64,000 nucleotides of DNA from the NCBI RefSeq assembly GCF_003991155.1, contig NZ_CP031293.1. One strand, 5' to 3'. The notes under the pieces were generated by a model, which made no database searches, was not told the origin of the DNA, and saw only the letters and a program-made list of their open reading frames with translations. Made by a program: the position numbers and the translations under genes. Origin of the DNA: Escherichia coli. GTDB lineage: Bacteria > Pseudomonadota > Gammaproteobacteria > Enterobacterales > Enterobacteriaceae. Shown here piece after piece: positions 15,149 to 18,367 of the stretch. Every line of letters starts with the position of its first letter. The stretch's first letter is position 1.

Positions 15149-16039
15149 ATGATGTTTAAGCAATACCTGCAAGTAACGAAACCAGGCATCATCTTTGGCA
15201 ACCTGATCTCGGTGATTGGGGGATTCCTGTTGGCCTCAAAGGGCAGCATTGATTATCCCCTGTTTATCTACACGCTGGTTGGGGTGTCACTGGTTGTGGC
15301 GTCGGGTTGTGTGTTTAACAACTACATCGACAGGGATATCGACAGAAAGATGGAAAGGACGAAGAATCGGGTGCTGGTTAAAGGCCTGATCTCTCCTGCT
15401 GTCTCGCTGGTGTACGCCACCTTGCTAGGCTTTGCTGGCTTTATGCTGCTGTGGTTTGGCGCGAATCCGCTGGCCTGCTGGCTGGGGGTGATGGGCTTTG
15501 TGGTTTATGTCGGCGTTTATAGCCTGTACATGAAACGTCATTCTGTCTACGGCACATTGATTGGTTCGCTCTCCGGCGCTGCGCCTCCGGTGATCGGTTA
15601 CTGTGCGGTAACCGGCGAGTTCGATAGCGGCGCAGCGATCCTGCTGGCTATCTTCAGCCTGTGGCAGATGCCTCACTCCTATGCCATCGCCATTTTCCGC
15701 TTTAAGGATTACCAGGCGGCAAACATTCCGGTATTGCCAGTGGTAAAAGGCATTTCGGTGGCGAAGAATCACATCACGCTGTATATCATCGCCTTTGCCG
15801 TTGCCACGCTGATGCTCTCTCTTGGCGGCTACGCTGGGTATAAATATCTGGTGGTCGCCGCTGCGGTGAGCGTCTGGTGGTTAGGCATGGCTCTGCGCGG
15901 CTATAAAGTTGCTGATGATCGAATCTGGGCGCGCAAGCTGTTCGGCTTTTCTATCATCGCCATCACTGCCCTCTCGGTAATGATGTCCGTTGATTTTATG
16001 GTGCCGGACTCGCATACGCTGCTGGCTGCTGTGTGGTAA
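15149..16039 (+). CDS. cyoE: Heme O synthase (protoheme IX farnesyltransferase)
   Basis: ORF 15104..16039; recognised N-terminus [29 protein letters not shown] begins at 15149. Confidence 0.9.
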
Positions 16040-16054
16040 CACAACCTCTCTATA

Positions 16055-16080
16055 AAAAAGGTGCTACGGCACCTTTTTTA
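16055..16080 (+). terminator. Intrinsic terminator of the cyo operon
   Basis: aaaaaaggtgctacggcacctttttt: perfect 6-bp stem (aggtgc/gcacct), 4-nt loop, A-tract before and T-tract after, 16 nt beyond the cyoE stop. Confidence 0.8.
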
Positions 16081-16092
16081 TTGTCTGAGATC

Positions 16093-16168
16093 AGAGATAC
16101 GGCTAATAACCGTATCTCTTGACAGAGTGAGCATATGCACATAAATTAATCACACGGTTGATAGCCGT
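16093..16168 (+). promoter_or_regulatory. Two related palindromes (ATACGG-N7-CCGTAT type) upstream of the antitoxin gene; candidate operator sites
   Basis: Perfect inverted repeat agagatacgg-ctaataa-ccgtatctct at 16093-16119, and a weaker copy acgg-ttgatag-ccgt at 16154-16168, both within about 130 bp upstream of the ATG at 16224. Confidence 0.4.
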
Positions 16169-16223
16169 ATTATGCATGAGATCGACTCCCTACGATTTCA
16201 TTCAGTTAATCAAAGAGGTCATA

Positions 16224-16535
16224 ATGCCTGGAAAAACAGTCGCTCTACCCGATATCGATAAAACGCTGAAAAATGCGCGGGTTGAACTCAAAACCAGTCC
16301 CGACGCCAAAAACAAACTTCGTGAAGCTGCGCAAGCCGTTGGGGTAGATTTAAGCGCTTTTATTTTGAGCGCAGCTATGGAACGCGCCGAAAGTGTGCTT
16401 GATAACCAACGTCGCCGTGAGCTTTCGAATCAAAGCTGGGAACTGATGAACCAACTCATCGCTGAACCTGCTCAACCGACGCTCGCCCTCAAGGCGTTAA
16501 TGAAAAGGAAAAACAGCGATGGTCGACAAGCATGA
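16224..16535 (+). CDS. DUF1778-family type II antitoxin (TacA/AtaR-like), partner of the downstream GNAT toxin
   Basis: ORF-track frame 16158..16535; I place the start at ATG 16224, preceded by RBS aaagaggt, giving MPGKTVALPDIDKTLKNARVELKTSPDAKNKLREAAQAVGVDLSAFILSAAMERAESVL. Size (about 103 aa) and overlap with the GNAT toxin fit the DUF1778 antitoxin family. Confidence 0.7.
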   Translation: MPGKTVALPDIDKTLKNARVELKTSPDAKNKLREAAQAVGVDLSAFILSAAMERAESVLDNQRRRELSNQSWELMNQLIAEPAQPTLALKALMKRKNSDGRQA

Positions 16536-17061
16536 AGAGATTACTCTGCCCATAGTCCTCTCCTGTAATTATCAGTCTGATATTATTTATCCTGGGCAAA
16601 AACAGTTTGATTGCGGTAACCCTGTTATCGATAAATTTGTACGCGCATCGCTAAAGAAAAGTGTGCGTAATAGCGACTGTGCTGCTAAAGCTCTTATTGA
16701 CAGACAAAGTGGTGAACTGATTGGCATCTGTACTTTTACGGCATATTCGCTGGAAAAACAACGCGTTTCTGGCGTCCTTCAGGGTTCACAACCTTCAGAG
16801 ATTGGTGTTGTCAGATTAGTCATGTTAGGGGTAGCGCGGAAATATCAAAAGCGGGGCTTTGGTCAGGACCTACTATGTAATTTTTTTGAACATGTAAAAA
16901 TAATTCACCGGGCATTACCAATTAAAGGGGTTTATCTTGATGCTGACCCTGCCGCCATTAACTTTTATACTCGCCTCGGCTTTGTTCAGCTTTCAGCGAG
17001 GCCCAATGTTTTCGGTGCTGTACCGATGTTTTTAGCGATTCAGCATATTCTCGCGGCTTAG
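16519..17061 (+). CDS. GNAT-family acetyltransferase toxin (TacT/AtaT/ItaT-like; predicted aminoacyl-tRNA acetyltransferase)
   Basis: 180 aa, ATG at 16519 overlapping the antitoxin 3' end by 17 nt; FDCG motif near the N-terminus and GNAT acetyl-CoA motif QKRGFGQDLL. Confidence 0.7.
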   Translation: MVDKHEEITLPIVLSCNYQSDIIYPGQKQFDCGNPVIDKFVRASLKKSVRNSDCAAKALIDRQSGELIGICTFTAYSLEKQRVSGVLQGSQPSEIGVVRLVMLGVARKYQKRGFGQDLLCNFFEHVKIIHRALPIKGVYLDADPAAINFYTRLGFVQLSARPNVFGAVPMFLAIQHILAA

Positions 17062-17116
17062 ATTATTATCGCCTCCGGCCAGGGCTAGTTTTGCCTCAGC
17101 CGGGGACTGAGCAGCG

Positions 17117-17398
17117 TTACCACTTTTGTTCAATTGCCCCCGCTTTCAGCAACTCCACATCCTTGCCGTTAATGGTTGCCGTTGCGGCAACGATTGTGGT
17201 CCTTACAGTTGCACAAGATTTTCGCTCAAATTCCGGTTTATAAAGAATTAGAGACGAATTACTGGTAAATGAATCAAATATGTAATCAGTAAAGCTAATA
17301 TTCAGCCGGTTTAAACCGAAAGGCGCGAAGCCAACCGTTTGGTTAATCTCCTTACCGGATGGGCTACGAATGCTGAATGTCACGCGAAGATTGGCCAC
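17117..17398 (-). CDS. Hypothetical small protein (93 aa), immediately downstream of the Sel1-repeat gene
   Basis: ORF MANLRVTFSIRSPSGKEINQTVGF...TVRTTIVAATATINGKDVELLKAGAIEQKW; no recognisable family; may be a gene fragment. Confidence 0.3.
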   Translation of the reverse strand: MANLRVTFSIRSPSGKEINQTVGFAPFGLNRLNISFTDYIFDSFTSNSSLILYKPEFERKSCATVRTTIVAATATINGKDVELLKAGAIEQKW

Positions 17399-17403
17399 TT
17401 CGC

Positions 17404-17961
17404 CTAATTTATTGGTGGTCCGGAAGACTTTCTGTCAATCATGTCTTTTCGACATGTAGCCAGAAAGTCTTCCGGACCACCATAAATGTGGACACCTTTA
17501 TCAAGATATTCCTTCGCTTTCTTACAATCTACCTCAACATACTGACCATTGGCGTACATCATGCCCAACCTGGACCATGCTAAATTCACACCGTATTGCG
17601 CGGCCTGATTAAATAGTGCATACGCTTTGGCATAATCCACCCGCACCAGCTCACCGTCGTAGTAGATACTCCCCAGCGCTAACGGAGCTTCTCTATCACC
17701 GTGTTTAACGGCTAACTCAAACCATTTAATCGCTTCCTGAACATCAGGTTTGGTATCAAAGCGAGGCTGATAATATTCCCAGCCTAACAGGCTCTGCGCG
17801 TCGACATCTCCCAATTCAGCCATTTTATGCAGTCTATTTATAACATCGGGCGCAGGTTGACCACCGTATATGCTGTCATACAATTCATGCGCTTTCTCGC
17901 TTGCCACCACGCATGGTGAAACTATTAGCATTAAAGAAAATAATATTCTTTTAGTTAACAT
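17404..17961 (-). CDS. Secreted Sel1-like repeat (TPR-like) protein
   Basis: ORF 17404..18021; probable start at the ATG at 17961 giving signal peptide MLTKRILFSLMLIVSPCVVA, followed by Sel1-type repeats (AQSLLGWEYYQ..., ALGSIYYDGELVRVDYAKAYALFNQAAQYG, AWSRLGMMYANGQYVEVDCKKAKEYLDKG). Confidence 0.65.
   Translation of the reverse strand: MLTKRILFSLMLIVSPCVVASEKAHELYDSIYGGQPAPDVINRLHKMAELGDVDAQSLLGWEYYQPRFDTKPDVQEAIKWFELAVKHGDREAPLALGSIYYDGELVRVDYAKAYALFNQAAQYGVNLAWSRLGMMYANGQYVEVDCKKAKEYLDKGVHIYGGPEDFLATCRKDMIDRKSSGPPIN
17415..17481. repeat. Nested perfect palindrome (21-bp inverted repeat around an inner 6-bp hairpin)
   Basis: ggtggtccggaagactttctg (17415-17435) and cagaaagtcttccggaccacc (17461-17481) are exact reverse complements; the 25-nt spacer contains catgtc-ttttc-gacatg. 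Confidence 0.85.
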
Positions 17962-18367
17962 GTATACCTTTATGTTCTCTCTGTCATATATTTCCATAAT
18001 AATTAACCACCAAACATCCATTTAATGAATAAATACAGTGCCATAAAGGCCCAAGTAATAAGCACACATTTAACCTGAAACATTATCATCGATGTCACCA
18101 AATCGTTTATTTAGTGAGATAAAAATAGCATGTTCGCAAGATAAAAAATGCACATAGCAATCAAGAAATAATATTATTACTTTTGATGTAAAACTATTTA
18201 GCTTTAAGAATAATTTTTTCAACATATAGAGCATTCATTTTATGAATGCAAAATAAACATGCCTGACACACAAACTATTCTCCTCTGTAATATTTTCTCA
18301 TTAACACTCTGTTTACCCAACATGCGCTCCGCACTACACTATGTGGGCATTTTTTTAAGAGGTGGTA

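Follow-up and report, generated by a model that had tools for sequence, protein, structure and literature searches.

A minority allele of the Escherichia coli toxin-antitoxin operon itaRT and two palindromic candidate operators at its promoter

A stretch of 64,000 nucleotides of the Escherichia coli chromosome, here referred to as the window, contains a two-gene operon that encodes an RHH antitoxin and a GNAT toxin. Judged by its sequence this pair is itaRT itself, which is already characterised, not an uncharacterised relative of it, and the copy in the window is a minority allele of E. coli itaRT. Two related palindromes upstream of the antitoxin gene, O1 and O2, are very probably the ItaRT operators. 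We hold with considerable confidence the combined reading of the locus as a type II toxin-antitoxin operon, present as a minority allele, which the ItaR-ItaT complex would repress through O1 and O2. The gene pair as such adds nothing new, as itaRT is known from genetics, biochemistry, structure and ribosome profiling. The gain is a precise and testable model of the itaRT operators, in which two TACGG-N7-CCGTA palindromes bracket the promoter.

The published biology concerns ItaR-ItaT of E. coli HS and BL21(DE3) (Wilcox et al. 2018, PMC6125619; Zhang et al. 2020, PMC7367177; Bikmetov et al. 2022, PMC9177977). Induced ItaT is toxic, growth is restored by ItaR, and the two proteins form a tight complex; the toxin acetylates Ile-tRNAIle, blocking translation, and ItaR is not one of its substrates (PMC6125619). 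It further acetylates Val-tRNAVal and Met-tRNAMet (PMC7367177). The aminoacyl pocket of ItaT is made up of V36, I37, F40 and M102 and its tRNA face of K39, R42, K46, K47, R50, K80 and R82, while acetyl-CoA is held by G115, Y150 serves as general acid and L133 is located at the dimer interface (PMC7367177). In ribosome profiling ItaT causes pauses at AUU and AUC codons, and overexpression of Pth counteracts the toxin; together these results point to elongator Ile-tRNAIle(GAU) as the physiological target (PMC9177977). A reporter carrying a 172-bp upstream fragment is repressed by ItaR and ItaT together, not by ItaR alone, and this repression is independent of ItaT catalysis (PMC6125619). If it is counted from the start codon, the fragment includes both palindromes. 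Mapping of the itaRT operators was not found in the accessible literature, though repression through the upstream fragment is described there, and the words 'operator', 'palindrome' and 'inverted repeat' are absent from the 2018 paper (PMC6125619). As a prediction, the assignment of operators to itaRT appears to be new, if unsurprising.

In the window the genes cyoB, cyoC, cyoD and cyoE are on the + strand, with the end of cyoE at 16039. The cyoE terminator (16052–16081, + strand) has a perfect 13-bp stem, ATAAAAAAGGTGC / GCACCTTTTTTAT, and forms the left boundary of an islet; homology to islet-free E. coli stops at approximately 16079. The islet is 2278 bp (16080–18357), is present in place of 98 bp in islet-free strains, and contains itaRT and a broken TPR/Sel1-like gene (17117–18021, - strand) that lies outside the toxin-antitoxin pair. 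This neighbour has been broken by a deletion of approximately 91 bp at 17420–17428; its common allele encodes 311 aa. Where itaT and the TPR gene converge, a possible hairpin (17073–17105, + strand) was considered as a terminator. It is a weak candidate with no clear T-tract and, with z only -1.88, is unconvincing. Between 1367 and 1371 of 5426 complete E. coli genomes (about 25%) carry the islet, and in these it is always located between cyoE and yajR. The window allele, at 99% identity or more, is present in about 100 genomes, and the other carriers have an HS-type allele that is approximately 96.5% identical.

The antitoxin gene itaR (16224–16535, + strand) encodes 103 aa and the toxin gene itaT (16519–17061, + strand) encodes 180 aa. 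The RefSeq annotation of a 100%-identical genome, that of strain 2016C-3878, has a 'DUF1778 domain-containing protein' and a 'GNAT family N-acetyltransferase' at the same coordinates. A previous reading of this DNA from the sequence only had described a DUF1778 antitoxin and GNAT toxin pair with the antitoxin gene first and an overlap of 17 nt. Both the pair and the overlap are there, in the two-gene layout with a 17-nt overlap that is also that of the published E. coli itaRT: the antitoxin has a TacA1/DUF1778 domain (Pfam PF08681, E = 2.4e-17) and the toxin is nearly identical to ItaT.

The identity of the toxin was established by a search of solved structures, in which its residues 1–180 match PDB 7BYY chain A with E = 4.5e-114. 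This structure is E. coli HS ItaT with the engineered, inactivating change G115D (PMC7367177). With that change set aside, the window toxin and HS ItaT are identical at 174 of 180 residues (96.7%), and the native G115 is kept in the window. The six substitutions relative to E. coli HS are T23I, D121N, Q131R, A151T, T161R and A164V. The toxin of the common E. coli allele at this locus (L002) is the same as 7BYY except for G115D. The predicted mass of the window protein is 19.96 kDa, and the published mass of ItaT is 19.8 kDa. All of the residues defined by mutagenesis (V36, I37, F40, M102, G115, L133 and Y150) are identical in the window protein, and all seven residues of the tRNA face are kept. 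The FDCG and QKRGFGQ motifs seen in the sequence-only reading are at residues 30–33 and 110–116. ItaT has the features expected of a GNAT toxin, including the acetyl-CoA motif Q/R-x-x-G-x-G/A (QKRGFG, residues 110–115) and a catalytic tyrosine, Y150.

The same reading had placed the toxin in the TacT/AtaT/ItaT class and had judged it to be clearly divergent from AtaT, and on both points the structure search agrees. After 7BYY the toxin matches KacT, AtaT and TacT-type toxins, with the AtaT chains matching only at E ~1e-5, and the antitoxin matches KacA and AtaR. It had also stated that the tRNA target cannot be inferred, and this has to be withdrawn. Because the toxin has only 6 differences in 180 residues from the studied HS protein, the main target of the window ItaT can be inferred from the HS allele to be Ile-tRNAIle, with Val and Met tRNAs as further substrates.

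Might this instead be an ordinary housekeeping GNAT, with a small molecule or a protein as its substrate, which stands beside an RHH regulator by chance? Pfam reports only generic GNAT families for the toxin, and the NCBIfam matches (RimI, MshD and PaiA) are sub-threshold GNAT models that are uninformative for family, which is the little that speaks for such a reading. These searches gave no assignment to a non-toxin GNAT family, and it is the near-identity to ItaT that decides. An identity of 96.7% to a proven tRNA-acetylating toxin effectively refutes the housekeeping reading, the next-nearest solved relatives are all GNAT toxins, and the gene overlaps that of a TacA1-family antitoxin. We regard a housekeeping role as hardly credible. 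The PADLOC defence-system models gave no match for either ItaR or ItaT.

The 103-aa ItaR has a predicted mass of 11.37 kDa, compared with a published 11.4 kDa. A Shine-Dalgarno sequence, AAGAGG (16213–16218, + strand), is present 5 nt ahead of its ATG, and the RefSeq start agrees. Longer versions of itaR, starting at a TTG at 16158 or at an in-frame ATG at 16176, were rejected, as neither has a Shine-Dalgarno sequence and as 103 aa fits both the published mass and the RefSeq start. NCBIfam gave only weak MobA/RelB matches for the antitoxin and was uninformative. ItaR is identical to the antitoxin of the common allele at 100 of 103 residues, with N-terminal differences A6V, T7A and V11I. We infer that it is the cognate ItaR from this match, in which the reference was not HS ItaR directly but the antitoxin encoded together with the toxin that equals 7BYY. 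The putative DNA-reading strand is R19-V-E21-L-K23, and the strand ARVELKT is invariant throughout the ItaR clade.

The first of the palindromes, candidate operator O1 (16093–16119), is a perfect 10-bp inverted repeat, AGAGATACGG-CTAATAA-CCGTATCTCT, the arms of which extend to 13 nt with one mismatch. Its core, ATACGG-N7-CCGTAT, is at 16097–16115. The 3' end of O1 abuts a -35 hexamer, TTGACA (16119–16124, + strand), such that the last base of the palindrome is also the first of the hexamer. A -10 hexamer of the σ70 type, TAAATT (16142–16147, + strand), follows after a 17-nt spacer. The -35 hexamer was located by a promoter consensus scan, and its TTGAC is kept in orthologues. The second palindrome, candidate operator O2 (16152–16170), begins 5 nt past the -10 hexamer and has the sequence ACACGG-TTGATAG-CCGTAT, with one mismatch to the palindrome. 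Transcription would start at approximately 16153–16155, that is, inside O2. O1 and O2 share a TACGG-N7-CCGTA-type core and flank the promoter TTGACA-17-TAAATT. The sequence-only reading had noted the perfect repeat and a weaker related copy, both of which are present, and had suggested that they would fit autoregulation by the antitoxin. Their position around a σ70 promoter and their retention in orthologues are consistent with that suggestion.

This arrangement is not one that would be expected by chance. In the 64-kb window ATACGG-N7-CCGTAT, allowing up to 1 mismatch, is matched twice, and both matches are upstream of itaR. Shuffled sequences give an expectation of 0.05 matches, and none of 100 shuffles reached 2. 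In the common E. coli allele the upstream region is approximately 96% identical and both palindromes and the promoter are present; there it is O2 that has a perfect ATACGG, and O1 that has one outer mismatch.

Further evidence comes from phylogenetic footprinting across nine orthologous loci outside the genus, the toxins of which are 63–88% identical: Pseudocitrobacter, Serratia (two loci), Rahnella (two loci), Superficieibacter, Buttiauxella, Edaphovirga and Citrobacter freundii. Their genomic contexts are unrelated; among them are a replicon, where the locus is beside repB, and a plasmid that carries phage tail genes. In the 58.6 kb of sequence from these nine loci TACGG-N7-CCGTA is matched 17 times, where approximately 0.06 matches are expected, and every one of the 17 falls in the 300 nt that precede the antitoxin gene. 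In eight of the nine loci the palindrome is present as two copies, 55–61 bp apart. Between the copies there are TTGAC-N17-TA(A/G)ATT-like hexamers at fixed offsets, while the 17-nt spacer and the flanks vary; in the eight two-palindrome loci and in the common E. coli allele TTGAC is at the same offset from O1. The arm sequence TACGG/CCGTA is invariant across the orthologues, with no co-variation, which speaks for recognition by a protein rather than for a hairpin in RNA or DNA. The sequence evidence for a palindromic operator, to which the toxin-antitoxin complex would bind, is strong.

The same loci bear on whether the repeats are structural elements, with O1 as part of the region of the cyoE terminator and O2 as a stabilising stem-loop at the 5' end of the itaRT mRNA. 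O2 would be at the far 5' end of the predicted transcript, where a 6-bp hairpin is possible, and in the consensus scan it is listed as terminator-like on the minus strand. However, the real cyoE terminator is a separate element, the 13-bp stem at 16052–16081, and O1 is upstream of the promoter and would hence be outside the itaRT transcript. A constraint on structure only would give compensatory changes, which the invariant arms do not have. In addition, a crystal structure shows KacA on the same sequence, no Rfam family matches the repeats, and nothing in 15950–17300 comes near an Rfam gathering score. A purely structural role for the palindromes is very improbable.

The crystal structure in question is that of KacA-KacT from Klebsiella pneumoniae, in which, as in itaRT, the GNAT toxin is partnered by an antitoxin of the RHH/DUF1778 type (Qian et al. 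2019, PMC6698736, PDB 5ZGN). Its KacA4KacT2 complex was crystallised with the DNA AAATGTACGGTTATTAACCGTACATGA, and the half-sites, the 7-bp AT-rich spacer and the 11-bp periodicity of that DNA match those of O1 and O2 (PMC6698736). The KacA operator core, GTACGG-TTATTAA-CCGTAC, and that of O1, ATACGG-CTAATAA-CCGTAT, have the same core sequence and spacing. In the crystal two RHH dimers read neighbouring major grooves, with compression of the minor groove at the centre (PMC6698736). The KacAT palindrome spans the transcription start, as O2 is predicted to do, and KacT is a co-repressor, just as ItaT is required for repression. The proteins themselves are distant from those of itaRT (toxin E = 1e-6, antitoxin E = 3.5e-11). 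The contact residues R8, D10 and R12 of KacA align with R19, E21 and K23 of ItaR, but their identities differ, and ItaT has an N-terminal extension of approximately 10 residues, kept in the ItaT clade, that KacT does not. Conditional cooperativity has been demonstrated for KacAT.

Related systems include AtaR-AtaT of E. coli O157:H7 and TacA-TacT of Salmonella, which also combine aminoacyl-tRNA-acetylating GNAT toxins with DUF1778 antitoxins and are autoregulated through the toxin-antitoxin complex. AtaT and TacT belong to other clades than ItaT and differ in tRNA preference, which is for Gly and others in AtaT and for Gly in TacT (PMC9177977). TacT acetylates TacA, whereas ItaT leaves ItaR unacetylated (PMC6125619). 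The palindrome is found beyond the ItaR orthologues. A distant homologue on an Acidovorax plasmid, in which the toxin is 36% identical and the strand reads ARMELKT, has TTGACT-ATACGG-N7-CCGTAT, so that TACGG-N7(AT-rich)-CCGTA is common to distant GNAT/RHH clades: the ItaR orthologues of eight other genera, KacA and the Acidovorax homologue. A universal operator for all DUF1778 antitoxins was rejected, as the motif is missing in GmvA-like homologues (Shigella pINV) and in Klebsiella IncFIA homologues. In a homologue from a Salmonella Cerro IncI plasmid the half-sites are differently arranged.

Taken with the published results for the HS allele, the ItaR-ItaT operator model for the window can be described as follows. 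ItaT, as a dimeric GNAT, would transfer the acetyl group of acetyl-CoA to the alpha-amino group of charged elongator tRNAs, as shown for HS. Its substrates here would be mainly Ile-tRNAIle(GAU), with Val and Met to a lesser extent, and elongation would stall at Ile codons. The C-terminal part of ItaR would bind and neutralise ItaT as it does in the HS allele. By analogy with KacAT and AtaRT, from which the stoichiometry is carried over, the complex is probably an ItaR4ItaT2 heterohexamer. One complex would be bound at each 19-bp palindrome, its two RHH dimers sitting on the two ACGG/CCGT half-sites, which are 11 bp apart or approximately one helical turn. Occupancy of O1 would block access to the -35 hexamer, and occupancy of O2, over the predicted start, would block open-complex formation or promoter escape. 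With both occupied the TTGACA-17-TAAATT promoter would be off. The need for ItaT in repression may reflect the bridging of ItaR dimers by the toxin, as in KacAT and AtaRT.

Three of the differences between the window allele and its relatives deserve attention. T23 is invariant in ten other sequences (one from the HS allele, nine from orthologues) and is within a conserved YQxDITYP segment, but the window has Ile at this position. T23 is also kept in a 99%-identical E. coli allele (L004), and an exact match to the 61 nt surrounding codon 23, T23I included, is present in only 49 of 1368 carrier genomes. A151T adjoins the catalytic Y150, and Thr is found there in Buttiauxella as well. In O2, a T-to-C change in the outer half-site gives ACACGG in the window, compared with ATACGG in the common allele and most orthologues. 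The O2 variant haplotype was counted in 84 genomes, a partial count, as the 28-nt exact word of megablast drops common-allele genomes. T23I or A151T could weaken or alter the toxin, and with these allele differences the toxin may be attenuated or repression slightly weaker.

Is the window allele a decaying copy, in which ItaT is mostly non-toxic through T23I, perhaps together with D121N or A151T, and the module has become a neutral remnant? The otherwise invariant T23, the rarity of the T23I haplotype and the imperfect O2 of the window lineage would fit such decay, and the neighbouring TPR pseudogene makes relaxed selection on the islet possible. However, both reading frames are intact, as are ItaR and the core of both operators, and every residue of ItaT for which there is an experimental requirement is kept. 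The codon differences between itaT in the window and in the HS-type allele are mostly synonymous (13 synonymous, 6 non-synonymous), and T23 has no reported function. We consider decay improbable, and an itaRT operon under the control of its own complex remains the preferred reading of the locus.

Two further possibilities go beyond the operon itself: that T23I changes toxicity or tRNA preference, or that the shared core permits cross-repression, with tuning by O2 and the reading strand. We think it rather unlikely, but not implausible, that one or the other applies. In the case of cross-repression, non-cognate complexes present in one cell, such as those of itaRT with ataRT- or kacAT-type modules, could act on each other's promoters, and specificity would then have been tuned by the T-to-C change in O2 and by the R-to-K difference between the reading strands. 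The core that is shared with the KacA operator raises the question of regulatory cross-talk among GNAT/RHH modules, and the natural T23I allele is a possible probe of the N-terminal segment that is specific to ItaT.

The islet formed by itaRT and the adjoining TPR gene (window 16080-18357) stands where islet-free strains have 98 bp, and about 75% of E. coli genomes lack it and have this 98-bp segment instead. At its right end the replacement stops only a few bases short of the yajR Shine-Dalgarno sequence, so that the upstream and promoter regions of yajR are wholly different in carriers and non-carriers.

Within the islet, the TPR/Sel1-like gene beside itaT (window 17117-18021, minus strand) is a pseudogene, broken by comparison with the common E. 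coli allele (L002), in which the intact gene encodes 311 aa. In the window, 9 bp at 17420-17428 stand for approximately 100 bp of the intact gene (L002 1921-2020), and this replacement splits it into two ORFs of 205 aa and 93 aa. The sole PADLOC match for this gene was a weak one, to the PtuA ATPase model (E = 1.7e-4). Codon 23 of itaT (window 16585-16587) encodes Ile, whereas Thr is invariant in the ten sequences with which it was compared, those of nine orthologues plus the HS allele. This T23I site lies within YQxDITYP, an N-terminal segment that is specific to the ItaT clade, is absent from other GNAT toxins, and has no reported function.

The placement of the palindromes also varies among the orthologous loci. 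In five of these (L007 2519-2690; L008 2476-2681; L011 2473-2681; L014 2538-2705; L015 2475-2642) the second palindrome is 165-210 nt 5' of the antitoxin start, as compared with approximately 55 nt in E. coli. Such a long leader holds a small ORF, 16-22 codons in length, with a Shine-Dalgarno-like sequence in front of it; MRNQSKALNFSRFIKLS and MKFTANVFNLNRFRCIF are examples. Conservation of the encoded peptides is poor, and they are not rich in Ile. The Superficieibacter electus orthologue (L009 2265-2999) has only a single palindrome, 40 nt 5' of the antitoxin start. Here an upstream open frame of approximately 245 codons continues into the antitoxin gene, and the promoter region therefore appears to have been rearranged. 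In the distant GNAT/DUF1778 pair on a Salmonella Cerro IncI plasmid (L019, about 640-670), the half-sites are identical but their order is inverted (CCGTAC-AAT-GTACGG), immediately 5' of a TTGAC. This sequence hints that RHH binding in that clade may have another spacing or geometry.

Two of the long-leader orthologues, those of C. freundii (L014, NZ_CP145667.1) and S. marcescens (L015, NZ_OW849140.1), are plasmid-borne. One is surrounded by baseplate, tail, and morphogenetic genes, on what is likely to be a phage-plasmid; the other adjoins repB. Both of these contexts are consistent with a role of the ItaRT family in addiction or stabilisation.
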